The notes below the pieces were generated by a model, which was given only the letters and a program-made list of their open reading frames with translations, was not told the DNA's origin and ran no database searches. Position numbers and translations under genes: made by a program. A stretch of 64,000 nucleotides of DNA, taken from the NCBI GenBank assembly GCA_964642275.1, contig CAZXOA010000005.1, forward strand, positions 2,410-66,409, written 5' to 3'. Positions 7,970 through 59,818 of the stretch are shown here, one piece after another (the stretch's first letter is position 1; each line of letters starts with the position of its first letter). This DNA is from an uncultured Candidatus Saccharibacteria bacterium. GTDB taxonomy: Bacteria > Patescibacteriota > Saccharimonadia > Saccharimonadales > JACDBH01.

Positions 7970-8053
7970 TAGTGTAAGACTATAGCACTTTTCTGTATAA
8001 AATACTACTTATGACACAGTAGACAAACATAAGCAAAAAAGTGGCATAAGGTA

Positions 8054-8082
8054 TTGACTTTTTTGCACTCTCGTGATAGTAT
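8054..8082 (+). promoter_or_regulatory. Sigma-70-like promoter (TTGACT - 17 nt - TAGTAT)
   Basis: -35 TTGACT at 8054-8059, a 17-nt spacer, then -10 TAGTAT at 8077-8082 preceded by TGA (extended -10-like). It points into the ORF-free structured region. Confidence 0.5.
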
Positions 8083-8089
8083 ATATACA

Positions 8090-8730
8090 TCTTTCCTGGT
8101 GAGGTGGGAAATCCTTAGCCAAGGGAGTGAACAGGAGGAAGAGTAAAATAGTCTAATAGTGCCAGAAATGGTACTTTTTGTGCTGTTTAACCCCTTGAAT
8201 CCTGTTTCATAAGTTACAGATTTGAGTGCAGGTTGGAGTCGAAACCGAGCACCGGAGCGGAGGCGTACTACTGTACGGTGAGCACCGGAGACACAGGTTT
8301 TGGCCCAAGATGTGCCAAAGGTGTAATTTATGATTTTTACAAGTCGGATCATTACAGTTCATTATCTGTTTTGGACTGCAAAAGTGCAGATTATTACTCC
8401 CGTTAAACACCCGCTAGCATTAGATGGCTAGCGGGTGCAAATAAGCTAGCGCCTCACGCTAGCTTACAGAGGTAGTAATCTGCACTTGATGCAGTGTTGA
8501 GCCAGTAGGGTTGATGTCGCAAGACATCCCCGTTTGCTCCACTTTCCAAGAGCAGAGAGTGACTACATTTCACACTATAGACTAATCGTCTTAAAGTTCT
8601 AGACAGAAGTATGGCTACGGAATTCTGGTTTGCTGGTGCGTTTACCCGATTGGAGACTGTTGCGGACAAAATTTGCCCGCTAGCGGTCTCCAATCGGAGA
8701 CAACAACCCAAAACAAGAAAGGAGCCGGCC
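8090..8730 (+). ncRNA. Long structured leader or unclassified ncRNA
   Basis: There is no credible ORF. A multi-helix junction is formed by 8384-8397 pairing with 8472-8485, enclosing perfect hairpins at 8408-8437 and 8443-8465. There is also a GCAA-capped stem at 8513-8528 and a perfect 12-bp stem at 8646-8657/8686-8697 just upstream of the RBS at ~8720. Confidence 0.35.
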
Positions 8731-9309
8731 ATGCCGACTCTCGCCCATATCCGCCCCCACATCGACAGTTCCCACCGCTCCGGCTGGACGCTGGCAGGCT
8801 GGTTCCTCGGGATCATCGCCTCCCTCGTCGCTACCGCCTTTTTGTCCGTAGAGGTCGTCGTCGACCGTGTGCCCCTGTGGCATGCTGACGGCACTCCTGC
8901 CTTGGATGCAGACGGCTACCAGCTGGCTGACGTCTACCGGCAGACCGCATGGTCGGGTGACGGTGCTCTCGGGCTCGTCGTACCCATCATTGCGGTTCTG
9001 GTCGTTTGGGCTCTGTATGCGTTTGCCCGCGGCCGCGGCCGTCCATGGCAGCGTCTCACAGCGCTTGTGGCGGCATTCGTTGCCGGCTACCTCCTGCGGG
9101 ACCCGATCAGGGAAGCGCTGGAGGGCGGTGTCGAGTGGAGGCTCGTCTTCCTCGGCCTTGCCGCTGCCATGGTCATCCTGGCCTCAGCTTGGATTGCCCA
9201 CGAGTTCTACGCAAGGCGCGTGGACGAAGCACGGCAGCTGCGGGTATGGATCGGTCGCACCGAGGCCGCCCTCACCGCAGCGGGTATCGACCCTGCGTCG
9301 ATCCCGTGA
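8731..9309 (+). CDS. High-GC integral membrane protein (about 4 TM helices)
   Basis: The ATG at 8731 is preceded by AAAGGAG. The protein reads MPTLAHIRPH...GWFLGIIASLVATAFL...LGLVVPIIAVLVVWALYAF...LTALVAAFVAGYLL...VFLGLAAAMVILASAWIA. The ORF-track start at 8611 would include the upstream stem-loop. Codon usage is GC3-rich, unlike its neighbours. Confidence 0.6.
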   Translation: MPTLAHIRPHIDSSHRSGWTLAGWFLGIIASLVATAFLSVEVVVDRVPLWHADGTPALDADGYQLADVYRQTAWSGDGALGLVVPIIAVLVVWALYAFARGRGRPWQRLTALVAAFVAGYLLRDPIREALEGGVEWRLVFLGLAAAMVILASAWIAHEFYARRVDEARQLRVWIGRTEAALTAAGIDPASIP

Positions 9310-9517
9310 GATGACTGTCCGGAACGGACGGCTTGTACCACCACCGCGAATGCGGCAGGAGTACGGGTCATCCCCAAGCAAGGTCTATGCGACCTTCCTG
9401 GAGCCTCGGCTACCAGGTAGCTAGCATCCCCGTCGTGGACCGGGTGCAAGGGTTGTTGTCTTTACGGCGCACCCAGTCCACTTCCACATCCACCCGAGCA
9501 GACCCTTAGGAGGTATC

Positions 9518-10625
9518 ATGCGTAAGATCGCACTGCTCATCGGCCTTGTTGTCGCCTTGACGCTCACCGCTTGCGGCGGTGAGCGGAGGGGTGACTCGCG
9601 AGGTCATCAGTGGGCCTGGCGTCACAGCCGCGCCCAGCATGGGTGGCAATCCTGCCCCCGTGCCCAGTCCGGCGGATCCGGCGCCCACTCAGGTGGAGTA
9701 CGTCGGCTACGCCCCGAACATCAATGGTATTGCCTACGGTCCGGATGTTCGGCCGCAGATCGCCAACTTTGATGCGCTGAGCGCAGAAGAGCGGGCAGCT
9801 GCGGTCGCCGCGTTCCAGCGTGACGAAGGGGTTCGCTACTCCGCGAATCTCCTCGCCTATGCGATGGCGCGTGGCATTCGGCCCTGGGCGTCTGGACAGG
9901 AGTGGCTTGGTCAGCTGAACGCGTTGCACAACGACGCGCATCAGCGGGTGGCCCTCCAGGGACAGGTTGCCAACTGGGAGGCCCACTGCGTGACGAGCGT
10001 CGAGGTGAAGTATGTCGACAAGGCGTACAACTCCACGTGGTTCGAGCGCAGCTCGGGCGTACCAATGTTGGTACAGGGTCCGGGGCACGCCGACGTCGCC
10101 GGATGGGTGATCGAACGGGCTGTGTTGCAGGTGCCTGAGTGCATCGGCTTCTGGTCCGAGCTCGGTGGCATCGAGGTGCTCCAGGAGCGGCTGGTGTGCG
10201 ATTTCCAAATCGTGCTCCCGAGGCCGATCCCGGGCATTCCCGAGATCCCACCACCGGGCCCGACGCCGACCACGGTCCCGCCGACGGCGCCTCCAACGAC
10301 CCCACCGACAACCGTGCCGCCGACCACGGTCCCCCCGACGGTTCCGCCCACGACGAAGCCGCCGTACACCACGACGGAGCCGTCGCAGGTCACGATCGCT
10401 CCGCCGATGACGGCCCCGCCGATGACGACTCCGCCCACGGCCCCGCCGGACACGGCACCGCCAGGCCAGCCGGTGAATCAGATCGACCAACCGTCGACAA
10501 CGATCACCACCGGCAACGGCAACACAGGGGTTACCCAACCCTCAGTGCCGGGGCCTGCTGGCAACCCGACCAACGGCAATGATGGGATCGCCCCCACGGG
10601 TGAACCTGCTCCGCCGAGTCGGTGA
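9518..10625 (+). pseudogene. High-GC lipoprotein with a Pro/Thr-rich tail, split by a +1 frame change just after the lipobox
   Basis: An AGGAGG RBS is followed by ATG 9518, encoding MRKIALLIGLVVALTLTAC-GG (signal peptide plus lipobox). That frame then degenerates into an Arg/Trp-rich sequence ending at 9772. The plausible mature protein (SGGVTREVISGPGVTAAP...PPTTVPPTTVPPT...) is in the next frame from 9579 to 10625. Deleting a single G near 9581 would join the two parts. Confidence 0.55.
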
Positions 10626-11075
10626 GGTGCTCCTTGAGCAAAGTATGTCTCGTGAGGCTACCCTTGACTTGCCTATGCAAGTTTGAGCTCTCAAAGGGTA
10701 AATCGAGATTGGGTCGTAACAGATCCAGGGGTTTGAACCAGAAATGGTTTGATCTAGTCAGTAATGACACCCAAAGACGAGCGGTTGTGTGAGAACAGGG
10801 TTTTGAATGAGCGCGATGATACGCACTCTCCTGTTCATGTAGTCACATGTATATACGTCCGAGCCCATGGCTCCGTATGTATGCGGTACATTTGATGTCC
10901 GAGCTTAACTGCTCCATCCTCTGTACCACCCGCGCGGGCTGATTTTTGATTGATCTTTACGATCGACCAATTTTCAGCCCCGCAACACTATGACTTGTAA
11001 TGATCCGATTTGTTGCGAACCGTGTTCGTATCCGGCTCCTTAACAATCAGTGTAATGATAAACGTAACCATATTA

Positions 11076-11104
11076 TTGACAAATTAAAACCGTTGTGCTA
11101 TAAT
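11076..11104 (+). promoter_or_regulatory. Consensus sigma-70 promoter (TTGACA - 17 nt - TGcTATAAT)
   Basis: TTGACA at 11076-11081, a 17-nt spacer, then TATAAT at 11099-11104 with TGC immediately upstream. It lies about 120 nt upstream of the LPXTG gene start. Confidence 0.6.
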
Positions 11105-11224
11105 GAGAGTATAGAGTGATTTTCCAGAGGTGGAGTATCGCCACTATGGCTACATTAACAATGAGCGTAACGATTACTTTTGATTATTTTTAGTCTTAAA
11201 TTCACTTATTTTAAGGAGGTGGAT

Positions 11225-24706: not shown

Positions 24707-24793
24707 TACCTAAAAAGTCCTTGCACATTCCCAGAAGAGGCGTATAACGGTATATAGATTTTATAAAACGCTCTCTAAAACGAGGAAAACAAC

Positions 24794-25033
24794 ATGACAG
24801 ATTTCGAGGCCGCACAGGGCTATGTAAGCTGTGGTGATACGATTTTGGCGCTTGATCTAGAGGCATGCCCTGGCCTTTATGGTAGGGCAGTACAGAGGCT
24901 GCATGAGATGAATGCACGAGAAGCGGAAAAGGCACGGGCCAGTGGCGAAAAGCCCAGTATTTTTACAATCCAAGATGTTACTCAAATGATTCTGGCCGAA
25001 ACATTCACATTACCCGAACAAAGAGTTGCATAA
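24794..25033 (+). CDS. Small hypothetical protein
   Basis: 79-aa ORF with normal composition. No family recognised. Confidence 0.45.
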   Translation: MTDFEAAQGYVSCGDTILALDLEACPGLYGRAVQRLHEMNAREAEKARASGEKPSIFTIQDVTQMILAETFTLPEQRVA

Positions 25034-25054
25034 TTATTACGTTTATGCTATACT
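25026..25054 (+). promoter_or_regulatory. Putative promoter (TTGCAT - 17 nt - TGcTATACT) upstream of ssrA
   Basis: TTGCAT at 25026-25031, a 17-nt spacer, then TATACT at 25049-25054 preceded by TGC. It lies ~170 nt upstream of the mature tmRNA 5' end. Confidence 0.45.
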
Positions 25055-25222
25055 GATAACATCCCCTTGAATGGGGAGGGTTAGGATTTGTGTTTACGCA
25101 AATCCCCAAATCCGCGAGAGGATTCGCGGATTTGAGAGGAAAAGGCTTGGTTGAGCCACTAAGATTGCTGAGCAAATTTATTTTGTCAGCAATCTGGTGA
25201 CACAACCATTACACTTTGACGA

Positions 25223-25632
25223 GGGGCTGAATAGCTCGACATTTGGACATTTACAAGTTGGTGCCAGCAGGCCGGTTGTCTGAACGTTATCCGGACAAAC
25301 CAAATAGATGCAAAAACATCTGATCGTGTAGCTGGTCTTAGCAACGAGCTCGTAGCTTCGCTACGTAGCATGTTCGCTACCCCAGTACGCGTAGCTGCCT
25401 AATTTAGACAGCGACTGCAAGTGAGACATCAGATATCACGAAGTGGTCTTATATTTTTCTGATTGCTCAAGCCCTATGACTCATAGTGTTTGTTAAGATT
25501 TAGAGTTGCAGTGATTCATGTTCTTGTCAGTTCCAATCATGAATAGCTAAAGAAACCAAGTGATCTGAATAAGCCTGTAGAAAGCCAGCAAGTAACCGAA
25601 TGGACGCGGGATCATACCCGCCAGCTCCACCA
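25223..25632 (+). ncRNA. ssrA: tmRNA (transfer-messenger RNA)
   Basis: The 5' end GGGGCTGAATAGCTCGAC and the 3' end GGACGCGGGATCATACCCGCCAGCTCCACCA closely match the conserved tRNA-like ends of bacterial tmRNA. An internal tag reading frame ends ...SMFATPVRVAA-TAA (stop at 25400-25402). Confidence 0.85.
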
Positions 25633-38495: not shown

Positions 38496-38550
38496 AGTAC
38501 CAAGTGCCAAGTACCAAGTGCCAAGAATTGCATCCTGCATCCTGCATCCC
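38496..38550. repeat. Short tandem repeats in the atpD-atpC spacer
   Basis: AGTACCAAGTGCCA occurs twice (38496-38523), followed by TGCATCC three times (about 38530-38550). Confidence 0.6.
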
Positions 38551-38580: not shown

Positions 38581-38916
38581 ATGGCCGTTAGGCAGGACGC
38601 CTCGACCGGCAAGCTGGTTGATGACGGCAAGAAAGCCGAAAAGCCCAAAGAACTGGTCGATGACACAGGCAAGCCGCTGATGCTGGTCAAGGTTTACAGT
38701 CCGTTTCAGAGCTATTTTGATGAGCCGGCGTACAGTATCAGTGCCGAGAACCACACCGGCCCGTTTGATATTTTGCCCCGCCACCACAACTTTATGACGC
38801 TTGTAAGTGCTTGCGAGATGAAAATTAAAGCGCCCACAGGCGACAAAACGATACGTATCAACCGGGCGGTCATGCACGTCAAGGCTGATGAGATAGTTGT
38901 CTTCCTTGATGTGTAA
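38581..38916 (+). CDS. atpC: F1 ATP synthase epsilon subunit
   Basis: 111 aa, last gene of the block with a GGAGG RBS. LMLVKVYSPFQSYFDEPAYSISAENHTGPFDILPRHHNFMTL matches the epsilon beta-sandwich pattern (..G.fGILP.H.p..t.L). Confidence 0.75.
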   Translation: MAVRQDASTGKLVDDGKKAEKPKELVDDTGKPLMLVKVYSPFQSYFDEPAYSISAENHTGPFDILPRHHNFMTLVSACEMKIKAPTGDKTIRINRAVMHVKADEIVVFLDV

Positions 38917-39530
38917 GAGGTAATTCTTCTTATTTTACATTATATCACACCTTGTCAAGTGTGTCAACCCCCGCAATGAGCCAAAGTCAATAATAACTCT
39001 GTTAAAATGGCATTTCTTTGTATAAGGAACCAAATCGCAGATGTTCTTCCGGTGAAGAACCAAACCCCTTCTTTTCTGTGTCGACAGAAAAGAAGGCAAA
39101 AGAACTCGCCCGCACCCCTGCCATGACTTGTCTGTTGTCAGAAGGCACAATACGCAAGGCGGACTCCCTTCGGTCGGGGTATGAAGTTTCATATTTGAGT
39201 TCATACCCTAGCGCCTTGCTCTCTATTGTGCTTTTGACTAACGTCCAAATCCTATGGCAGGAGTGCATGGGCATAGAAAACAGAAGCCGCCCTATGGCGG
39301 CGTTATTGGTAGCACCACTGGCAAGCCAGCGGTTTCTGCTTTTGTCCCGGCTTTCTAAAAACCGATGAAACAGGGCTGAAAAATAGCCGAGTCAAGCCGA
39401 AGCCTGCCCCGCTGTTCCGAAATAGAAGCGGGGATGCTTGTCATTCTTCGGCGCGGCTATTTTTCAGGTCTGGTTCAATCGTGTTTTTAGAACTGCCGAG
39501 TCGTTTTTTGGGTTCCCGTTTTTGTCGATA

Positions 39531-39553
39531 CAAAAATGGAACGATTCGGTTCC
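39531..39553 (-). terminator. Possible rho-independent terminator for the minus-strand gene 39600..40724
   Basis: On the minus strand this reads GGAAC-CGAATC-GTTCC followed by ATTTTTG. It overlaps an alternative 8-bp hairpin at 39549-39566. Confidence 0.35.
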
Positions 39554-39599
39554 TTATCTAAGGAACATTAATGATTTGTTTCTTTACAAAAGAAAACCC

Positions 39600-40724
39600 C
39601 TAATTGATAACAATATAATTGAACCGGCAGGTGGCGCCAGCAGGCGGATTGGTTGCAGTGGCGATAGAGAATTGAGTGGCGCTGACGTTGGTAATGTAAT
39701 AGCCGATGTTTGCGCAGCCGGGGCCGTTTGGTGTAATGATTGGGTGCGGGTTGTTGCTATTGAATGCGCCGGTAAAGAAAACAGTTGCCAGCACACCGGT
39801 ACCTGTGCCCCCGCCCGTGTTAATGGTAACGGTAGCGGCTGTATCCGTGCCGTTGACGCTAGCCGTTGCTCCGCTGCCGGCCGCTCCGCCTGTATTAACA
39901 CTGGGGTTGTTGCCGGAGATATTGATGCGGGTAATAGAAATCTGGTCAAAGTTGATGCCTTGGGCCGAAATAACACCGTTCACATTGAGATTGCCGCCGA
40001 TGGTGGCTTGCCCGCCGATATCCAGCCGCCCGCCGGCGTTGATACTGCCGGCCACTGTTAAGTTCTCGCCCATGCTTACCGTGCCAACAACATCCAATAT
40101 GCCCCCAATGGCCGTATTTCCAGCAGCTTGCAGGTCGTTTGTCGATAGCGACCCAAACGTACCAGACCCGGCAGCCTGGATACTGGGAATACTGAGTGCC
40201 CCGCCAATACGCAGCGCACCGGCCACATCAAGCGTGTCGCGCATAACAACCTTGCCGCTGATAACGGCGTTGGATTCGATAGTCAGGATTTGCTGCGGAT
40301 CGCCCACAATAGCGTCGGATGTTTTGAGCTGCTCCAGAGTCTCTTCAGTGATACGGGTGGTTTCTAGGCGGATTTCCGTCTCGCGTTTATTCATAAAATA
40401 CAGGACCACATAGGCAGCAACAGCTATCACCACTACCAGTATGAATAAGAGCAGATAGATATTAACTTTGCCAAGCAGCGCTTTAAAGCCTTTCGGCTTT
40501 GGTTTGGGTGCGGCGGCCGGATCTTTGTCTTGGTTTGATTCGTCAGCCATCGAATCGACGGCGGATTTTTTGGGGCCGGACTCAAGCGTGCCGTCGGCTT
40601 GCGACAGCTGTCCCATCAGCTCCTCGGGTGACTTGTCGGACTTTTGATTATCGGCAGAATCTGCCGGAGCACTGTTCTCAGGTGTGCCGACTGCCTGCTG
40701 CGGTGCTTTGTCTTTTTCTTCCAT
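39600..40724 (-). CDS. Membrane-anchored protein with a disordered N-terminus and a Gly-rich repetitive (beta-helix-like) ectodomain
   Basis: 374 aa. TM helix IYLLLFILVVVIAVAAYVVLYF. Repeats of the type VAGALRIGGALSI / AIGGILDVVGTVSMGENLTVAGSINAGGRLDIGGQATIGGNLNVNG. Confidence 0.7.
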   Translation of the reverse strand: MEEKDKAPQQAVGTPENSAPADSADNQKSDKSPEELMGQLSQADGTLESGPKKSAVDSMADESNQDKDPAAAPKPKPKGFKALLGKVNIYLLLFILVVVIAVAAYVVLYFMNKRETEIRLETTRITEETLEQLKTSDAIVGDPQQILTIESNAVISGKVVMRDTLDVAGALRIGGALSIPSIQAAGSGTFGSLSTNDLQAAGNTAIGGILDVVGTVSMGENLTVAGSINAGGRLDIGGQATIGGNLNVNGVISAQGINFDQISITRINISGNNPSVNTGGAAGSGATASVNGTDTAATVTINTGGGTGTGVLATVFFTGAFNSNNPHPIITPNGPGCANIGYYITNVSATQFSIATATNPPAGATCRFNYIVIN

Positions 40725-59589: not shown

Positions 59590-59705
59590 GAGTGTTTTGA
59601 GAGTGGTAATTTGTGCAAAGCTAGAGCACTATTTCGGAGGCGTATATGCAATACGACGAAGAAATATCTCTAGCTTTGCACAAATTACCCTTAGCCGAAA
59701 AGACT
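59590..59705. repeat. Palindromic intergenic repeat, family 1, copy D
   Basis: Perfect 22-bp stem GGTAATTTGTGCAAAGCTAGAG (59605-59626) / CTCTAGCTTTGCACAAATTACC (59668-59689). The loop carries CGTATATGCAATACG (59641-59655), the exact reverse complement of the copy A core. Confidence 0.65.
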
Positions 59706-59788: not shown

Positions 59789-59818
59789 TTGACAATATAG
59801 CCATAAGCGTGTTATAAT
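59789..59818 (+). promoter_or_regulatory. Putative promoter (TTGACA - 18 nt - TATAAT) for sbcB
   Basis: TTGACA at 59789-59794 and TATAAT at 59813-59818. It overlaps the ORF-track start at 59817, which argues for the downstream ATG at 59871. Confidence 0.45.

Follow-up and report, generated by a model that had tools for sequence, protein, structure and literature searches.

A 683-nt gene-free spacer between two convergent genes was studied in a stretch of DNA of 64,000 nt (the window) from an uncultured Candidatus Saccharibacteria bacterium (JACDBH01; assembly GCA_964642275.1, contig CAZXOA010000005.1, positions 2,410-66,409 of the forward strand). The spacer, window positions 38917-39599, consists of two diverged, inverted copies of one hairpin module of about 270 nt. 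The left copy runs on the plus strand (39036-39312) and the right copy on the minus strand (39573-39303), with the parts in the same order. With about even confidence, the two modules are interpreted as a back-to-back pair of polar multi-hairpin intrinsic terminators or insulators, which would also form structured 3' ends. The spacer is bordered on the left by atpC (38581-38916, plus strand, PF02823), the gene that closes the atp operon. On the right is a minus-strand gene for a protein of 374 amino acids, named surf in this report (39600-40724, stop codon at 39600-39602), which gave no Pfam match; its product has one hydrophobic segment and likely spans the membrane. Relatives are labelled L001, L003 and so on, each label denoting a genome locus compared with the window. 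The ATP synthase beta subunit (atpD) of the window was 88-93% identical to that of a dozen metagenome-assembled genomes of Saccharibacteria or Saccharimonadales and 65-71% identical to that of many more. The convergent order of atpC and surf was kept across most of the 80 genome loci compared.

A sequence-only reading of this DNA had described the spacer as a hairpin-rich region poor in open reading frames (ORFs) and as a candidate for either a large non-coding RNA (ncRNA) or a decayed element. All helices listed in that reading were found, namely 39043-39060 (7 bp), 39067-39079/39084-39096 (13 bp, perfect), 39177-39185/39200-39208 (9 bp), 39286-39301 (6 bp), 39376-39389/39454-39467 (14 bp, perfect, with inner 6-bp segments) and the overlapping hairpins at 39538-39566. 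The short helices were further found to nest in two long rods, 39108-39272 and 39346-39500. The relation of the two spacer halves as inverted paralogues and the minus-strand promoter at 38967..38939 were also new. In an alignment of five sequences the parts of the module follow in a fixed order: h1 (7 bp, GTTCYT..ARGAAC), a short linker, h2 (13 bp, TTTTYTGT-NTCG-ACARAAAA), an A-rich tract CAAAAGAAC, a long rod (about 160 nt), another conserved tract (AAGCAGAARCC) and a GC hairpin. The features of the spacer are as follows, with the strand given where one applies.

38939-38967, minus strand: promoter, TTGACA-17-TATAAT with TG extension (12/12), with the same sequence in L114 and L001; regarded here as neighbouring the element.
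39013-39030: degenerate relic of h1 and its linker, 20/25 identical to the reverse complement of the right h1 and linker.
39043-39060: left h1, GTTCTTC CGGT GAAGAAC, 7 bp; 3/7 pairs covary in 8 copies.
39067-39096: left h2, perfect 13 bp, core TTTTCTGT-GTCG-ACAGAAAA; 11/13 pairs with double changes in 12 copies.
39097-39107, minus strand: conserved tract after R1, CAAAAGAACTC on the plus strand and GAGUUCUUUUG on the minus strand, a U-tract for minus-strand transcripts; 11/12 copies.
39108-39272: rod R1, 165 nt, nearly all paired, bearing a side hairpin; apical loop, GTTTCATATTTGAG; common to L003.
39275-39285, minus strand: left tail motif, GAAAACAGAAG on the plus strand and CUUCUGUUUUC on the minus strand, U-rich after the left GC hairpin for minus-strand transcripts.
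39286-39301: left GC hairpin, GCCGCC CTAT GGCGGC.
39315-39332: right GC hairpin, on the minus strand CCGCTGG CTTG CCAGTGG with one G-U pair, which is an A-C mismatch on the plus strand.
39333-39345, plus strand: right U-rich tract, TTTCTGCTTTTGT, after the right GC hairpin; reverse complement of the tail motif AAGCAGAAACC.
39346-39500: rod R2, 155 nt, including a 92-nt hairpin of the sequence-only reading.
39501-39511, plus strand: U-run after R2, TCGTTTTTTGG, with six U directly past the rod.
39512-39542: right h2, core TTTTTGT-CGAT-ACAAAAA, with a 1x2 internal loop.
39549-39566: right h1, GTTCCTT ATCT AAGGAAC, identical to the atpC-adjacent h1 of L114.

The two GC hairpins (39286-39301 and 39315-39332) stand back to back in the centre of the spacer. 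The inverted relation of the copies was also recovered by profile searches, and it is seen directly in relatives with a single element. The lone element that L013 carries past atpC matches window 39009-39441 in one orientation and 39309-39583 in the opposite one, and L008 behaves likewise. The element of L003 aligns in reverse to 39010-39306.

The spacer was found to be exceptionally structured. The minimum free energy (MFE) of the whole spacer was -273 kcal/mol on the plus strand (z -10.0) and -282 kcal/mol on the minus strand (z -15.2), and none of 20 shuffles equalled these values. Each half folded alone reached z -9.0 against 200 dinucleotide-preserving shuffles. Its size is also exceptional, as first noticed: when a 116-aa ORF is discounted as spurious, it is the largest gene-free gap of the window lacking a known RNA gene, the runner-up being 554 nt. 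At the gathering cutoffs of Rfam 15, whose families include RNase P, the signal recognition particle (SRP) RNA, 6S, tmRNA, OLE, GOLLD, HEARO, ROOL and raiA, only a tmRNA (25223-25632) and one tRNA were detected in the whole window. Nothing but noise was obtained for 38800-39750 at E<=10 (12-19 bits against cutoffs of 70-88), and five module-bearing relatives gave zero matches at E<=1. The earlier impression that hallmarks of RNase P, SRP and 6S RNAs are absent from the spacer was thereby upheld, and these RNAs are excluded.

No credible coding sequence was present in the spacer. A Pfam search at E<=1 with the spacer ORFs (116, 90, 89 and 39 aa) gave noise only. Similarity to relatives in tblastx was alike in all six frames, and in the five-sequence alignment the insertions and deletions between module copies do not have lengths divisible by three. 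A type I toxin-antitoxin system was not supported either, as the sole ORF inside a module (39007-39126, 39 aa) is not conserved. The spacer could be imagined as the remnant of a protein-coding gene or an insertion sequence, one of the suggestions of the sequence-only reading, and other lineages do carry small genes at this place (L120 with PF05635, L010, L052, L059 and L060). Yet no match to these inserted genes was found by tblastx, a distant-setting blastn search of plasmid and phage DNA with the spacer matched nothing, and BLAST found no further copy of the spacer in the 64-kb window. With Pfam, blastn and tblastx all without support, such a remnant is effectively refuted and is considered highly improbable. 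The word decayed applies only insofar as the copies of the window have drifted from an apical signature described below and an h1 relic is left at 39013-39030.

Comparison among relatives showed strong covariation of h1 and h2. For h1 and h2 together in 8 copies, 95% of the cells were paired and double changes were seen in 10 of 20 pairs, a result that none of 500 shuffles reached; slid registers were only 43-57% paired. In the 12 copies of h2, which come from diverse lineages, 141 of 156 cells were Watson-Crick pairs, 4 were G-U and none was A-C. The base helix of the rod covaries too. Rod R1 is common only to L003, with an identity of 72%; here the 14 nt of the apical loop match letter for letter, as do segments next to it, and nothing of the 8-bp apical stem is retained. 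Over the atp genes, L114 and the window are 92.8% identical. The flanks of the L114 rod are 78-80% identical to R2, and the interior of the rod cannot be aligned to R2, yet it folds as a rod. The absence of coding sequence, the exceptional folding and the conservation among relatives, where changes compensate each other, make a functional structured nucleic acid credible. The proposal of a large ncRNA finds support in the non-coding character, high structure and conservation, but not as to a single RNA of about 680 nt, since two mirror-image modules of about 270 nt are present instead.

Rod interiors that turn over completely between close relatives and remain palindromic could also be generated without any function. 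Replication template switching at the convergent junction could make such DNA and keep it hairpin-like, and it would be tolerated until deleted. The scarcity of G-U pairs, the bimodal length of the spacer among relatives (-4 to 30 nt versus 150-760 nt) and the presence of other long hairpins in intergenic DNA of the same genome would agree with this explanation. Against it, loops, linkers and the apical signature are kept across deep divergence while the stems covary, and the order of parts is fixed. In addition, genomes of the Saccharibacteria kind are usually taken to delete unused DNA, so that 683 nt without function would be unexpected. Functionless palindromic DNA is thus regarded as unlikely.

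The two most conserved unpaired tracts of the module are A-rich from h1 toward the GC hairpin and give U-tracts on the opposite strand. On that strand UUCUGCUUUU comes straight after the GC hairpin, and UUUUUUG or UUCUUUUG comes straight after the rod base, which is GC-rich; as read from the alignments, 11 of 12 copies show this. The U-tracts after the GC hairpin and the rod carry the signature of intrinsic terminators for transcripts heading to the abutted gene. On the minus strand of the window, GCCGCCATAGGGCGGC followed by TTCTGTTTTC matches the sequence signature expected of an intrinsic terminator. The bases of the rods read GCCGAG then TCGTTTTTT on the plus strand and GCGGGC then GAGTTCTTTTG on the minus strand. 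The strand bearing the U-tracts is richer in G+U. Terminator-like sites were found on the minus strand in four of five cases, three of these inside the left module, and one such minus-strand site was flagged at 39301..39286.

Five promoters with a 12/12 consensus were found in the window, including the one at 38967..38939; the other four are taken, judged from their positions alone, to be gene promoters. No promoter upstream of the modules was consistent across copies. Since consensus promoters exist in the genome yet none consistently precedes the modules, transcription of the modules likely results from read-through from the flanking genes. The promoter at 38967..38939 may drive a cis-antisense RNA to atpC, and a hairpin (38870-38918) is located just downstream of it on the minus strand.

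Under the favoured interpretation, each copy would function in the RNA, as several intrinsic terminators arranged in a polar series. Along the strand toward the abutted gene, the polymerase would first transcribe the GC hairpin with UUCUGCUUUU, then the rod, with its GC-rich base, followed by UUUUUUG or UUCUUUUG, and finally h2 and h1. The right copy would stop transcripts of the atp operon before antisense entry into surf, and the left copy would stop surf transcripts before entry into atpC. The module next to the stop codon of each mRNA would stay on that mRNA and give it a long structured 3' end of great stability. As the two copies are equivalent, inversion of the block they form would be harmless.

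The apex of the rod is conserved in a manner of its own. An apical signature, GCGGAACTC-N13-45-A[GT]TCCTCG, was present in five rods (L013, both of L025, L034 and L114), and L014 carries it with one mismatch. The signature was confined to module rods in 1.08 Mb, and the copies of the window hold drifted versions of it. The helix just beneath it covaries, as read from the sequences (AACC/GGTT, CAGGC/GCCTG, GTTTC/GAAAC, GAATC/GATTC and TCGC/GCGA). A search for a trans target of the apical loop gave no match or complement beyond chance within the window. A loop motif at the rod apex of the main module, CGCTTCGCT, recurs in spacers of L009, L013 and L115 that hold a second conserved hairpin module, termed module C. 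Module C follows atpC or surf in relatives without the main module and was located at L009 3644-3713, L115 2840-2905, L007 7835-7898 and 9680-9742, and L013 2815-2748.

These features could be explained by a stand-alone or processed structured ncRNA of about 250-300 nt per module, acting in trans or as a protein-binding scaffold through the apical motif, with the junction supplying only its transcription, on whichever side that comes from. The fixed order of h1, h2, rod, tail motif and GC hairpin would fit such an RNA, as would the confinement of the signature to module rods above a covarying helix, the R1 apical loop that is 100% conserved on a replaced stem, and the loop motif common to the main module and module C. 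On the module strand, h2 has four G-U and no A-C cells, and the element persists through deep divergence. An ncRNA is difficult to reconcile with the patchy distribution and total loss in many close relatives, with copies that occur as inverted pairs, with the lack of a conserved upstream promoter across copies and of an overall strand signal in the pairing, and with the drift of the window's own copies from the signature. This explanation is considered possible, though clearly less probable than paired terminators.

Modules were identified by profile and covariance-model searches in the window (two), in L114 (two, one of them cut by the contig end), in L003, L008 and L013, and in the contigs L137-L142. 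More distant homologues were found in L034, L025 (two inverted copies) and L023, where atpD is only 65-70% identical. L014 was assigned through the apical signature alone. Decayed remnants were present in L007 and L136. In those Saccharimonadales that have them, the modules lie in either orientation, one or two per atpC/surf junction, and two-module junctions recur in the window, L114 and L025, with one copy per facing gene. Covariance models of R1 and R2 matched only this junction, both in the 64-kb window (filters off) and in about 0.94 Mb of Saccharibacteria loci. A metagenome scan with the surf protein returned two loci, neither with a module. The 30 matches of the h2 pattern in viral contigs were treated as chance; in the two that were read (L088 and L091) the selected 18-mer alone was present, in unrelated context.

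The junction itself is highly variable. In many lineages, including close relatives with 85% atpC identity, the stop codons overlap (-4 nt) or are separated by less than 30 nt. Spacers of 150-760 nt contain the module, other ORF-free strongly structured DNA (z -5 to -11) or small inserted genes. The inserted genes are unrelated and show that the atpC/surf junction is an insertion hot spot for small genes. L120 (2917-3264) and relatives carry a member of PF05635, the 23S rRNA intervening-sequence protein family with a four-helix bundle; L010 (2196-2605, minus strand) carries what looks like a gene for a small membrane protein that has a perfect promoter of its own; and ORFs of 150-245 aa occupy the spacers of L052, L059 and L060. 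Repeated rearrangement is also seen in L005, L007 and L144-L148, where surf is inverted, alone or with the next gene, and is thus co-oriented with atpC. L114 carries the whole two-module block in inverted orientation relative to the window, and the window positions 39013-39030 and 39537-39566 are the inverted repeats that border it, h1 and linker at both ends.

This variability raises the question of an element acting as DNA, either a small non-autonomous mobile or recombinogenic element or an array of protein-binding palindromes, whose inverted copies drive local inversions. The almost purely Watson-Crick stems, equally good on both strands, would suit it, as would the block inversion in L114 at 92.8% identity of the atp genes, the inversions of surf, the hot spot for unrelated genes and the decayed remnants. 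Against it, no copy outside this junction was found in the 64-kb window or in about 0.94 Mb of related loci, no transposase or recombinase gene adjoins the spacer in a Pfam scan that covered the five genes around it, and a target-site duplication is not visible in the flanks as printed, where no search aimed at it was made. The repeats at the flanks have degenerated (20/25), which indicates no recent recombination, and the conserved single-stranded tracts resemble terminator U-tracts. Retention at one locus across lineages with 65-70% atpD identity is unlike mobile elements. A DNA-level palindromic element is accordingly rated as rather improbable, somewhat ahead of functionless DNA. A programmed invertible switch (inverton or shufflon) was considered and is not supported, because the repeats are degenerate, the interior is non-coding and no promoter-like site was found inside 39041-39539; the block is nevertheless inverted in L114.

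Several observations weigh against paired terminators. The direction of action and termination were both read from sequence. Rods of 60-70 bp are about ten times the length a terminator needs. Termination leaves unexplained why the apical signature, GCGGAACUC...A(G/U)UCCUCG in RNA, is common to the rods of five relatives and why the window and L003 have the same R1 apical loop; together with the shared CGCTTCGCT motif, these two features suggest a partner molecule. The pairing carries no strand signal and suits a DNA palindrome equally. The stems are nearly all Watson-Crick, with 40 G-U pairs on one strand and 55 on the other over 11 copies (about 4-5% of pairs), and the composition-controlled z-scores were equal for both orientations. 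The raw MFE favoured the strand opposite to the h1-to-GC-hairpin reading; as this difference vanishes with base composition controlled, the assignment of a strand from G-U pairs or folding energy was rejected as uninformative. The element is dispensable, since many relatives with overlapping stops manage without any spacer. The perfect promoter beyond the left module fires antisense into atpC and fits poorly with protection of atpC. Finally, pairing within the right GC hairpin is better on the other strand than on the proposed one.

Among known systems, the module seems closest in working to intrinsic or bidirectional terminators and to the mosaics of repetitive extragenic palindromes and bacterial interspersed mosaic elements (REP/BIME) of enterobacteria. 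Like terminators, it lies between convergent genes, with GC-rich stems followed directly by U-tracts and with central GC hairpins flanked by A-rich and U-rich tracts on both strands, and its sequence evolves fast while pairing is maintained. Unlike terminators, it is a chain of four hairpins that includes a branched rod of 155-165 nt and 60-70 bp with a stem about ten times the usual; the rods are far from the short simple hairpin of a terminator (stem of about 5-14 bp, small loop). Its loops and apical motif are conserved and the homologous family is recognisable across genera, which is not normal for terminators. In REP/BIME elements, too, palindromic units alternate in orientation to form a mosaic, which is located behind stop codons and in the gaps of convergent gene pairs. 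They have been proposed to protect the 3' ends of mRNAs and to act in termination. REP units, however, measure about 35-40 nt and occur by the hundreds genome-wide, whereas the module of about 270 nt was found only at one junction.

The 6S, SRP and Ms1 RNAs resemble the module in size (180-300 nt), in a dominant long irregular hairpin, in conserved features near the apex and in poor conservation of primary sequence. R1 and R2 lack the central bubble of 6S RNA, as their largest internal loops are of a few nt, and there was no match to RF00013. The GNRA-capped domain IV motif of SRP RNA is also lacking; the apices are GTTTCATATTTGAG and a loop containing CGGAAC, and the module is absent from many close relatives. 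All three RNAs differ further from the module in that it has no Rfam match at E<=10 and is dispensable, patchy and present in duplicate as inverted pairs. To excludon-type antisense arrangements cut by RNase III, and to convergent 3' untranslated regions that overlap, the resemblance is one of geometry only. If the central hairpins were leaky, transcripts of atp and surf would share several hundred nt of sequence able to form near-perfect duplexes. Long perfect helices are substrates of RNase III. Miniature inverted-repeat transposable elements (MITEs) are similar in that the ends of the two-module block are inverted, the block folds into a long hairpin, and close relatives may have it or lack it. 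In contrast to MITEs, the module is restricted to a single locus and long retained there, its 'terminal repeats' are merely its two copies, no target-site duplication was seen in the printed flanks (no dedicated search being made), and dispersed copies were not found in the 64-kb window and about 0.94 Mb of related loci.

Other structured intergenic DNA was noticed in the window. Directly upstream of the tmRNA gene (25223-25632), the region 24707-25222 is folded very strongly and contains several perfect hairpins of 10-17 bp, and one 150-nt segment reached z of about -14. An ORF-poor stretch of about 1.6 kb (7970-9560) contains a branched 125-nt hairpin at 8340-8500 (z about -13), and a permissive Rfam scan of it gave noise. 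A hairpin with perfect 22-bp arms (59604-59690) precedes a perfect promoter at 59789, and a 554-nt structured leader (10626-11179) precedes the gene at 11180; the latter two have no homology to the module. The intergenic DNA of this genome seems to contain long hairpins quite generally. The atpD-atpC spacer of 90 nt consists mostly of two short tandem repeats, AGTACCAAGTGCCA x2.1 and TGCATCC x3 (38496-38549). Short-read contigs stop within the atpC/surf spacer near rod apices or perfect palindromes, in L001 at window 39188 and in L137-L142 at 142-176 nt past atpC, which suggests that the hairpins break short-read assemblies.

A full-text literature search found no description of elements of this sort for Saccharibacteria or Patescibacteria. 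Bacteria of the candidate phyla radiation, Saccharibacteria among them, have tiny genomes, and to our knowledge almost no non-coding RNAs or gene-boundary signals have been characterised in them. The module provides a concrete case for how Saccharibacteria end or insulate convergent transcription, and possibly a new class of structured RNA. Its palindromes may break short-read assemblies and accompany local inversions, and this affects how metagenome-assembled genomes of the group are read. A bolder view, held only tentatively, is that the modules represent a new Saccharimonadales-specific family of rod-shaped structured RNAs, marked by the conserved h2 and, in the rods of five relatives, by GCGGAACUC/A(G/U)UCCUCG, which would do more than terminate, either as a scaffold or through complementary 3' ends. 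If true, a protein-binding scaffold would be possible. Alternatively, the mRNAs of the atp operon and of the surface protein might end in long 3' stretches complementary to each other, whose duplexes, cut by RNase III, would couple the expression of ATP synthase with that of a cell-envelope protein in an episymbiont that has very few regulators of the classical kind.

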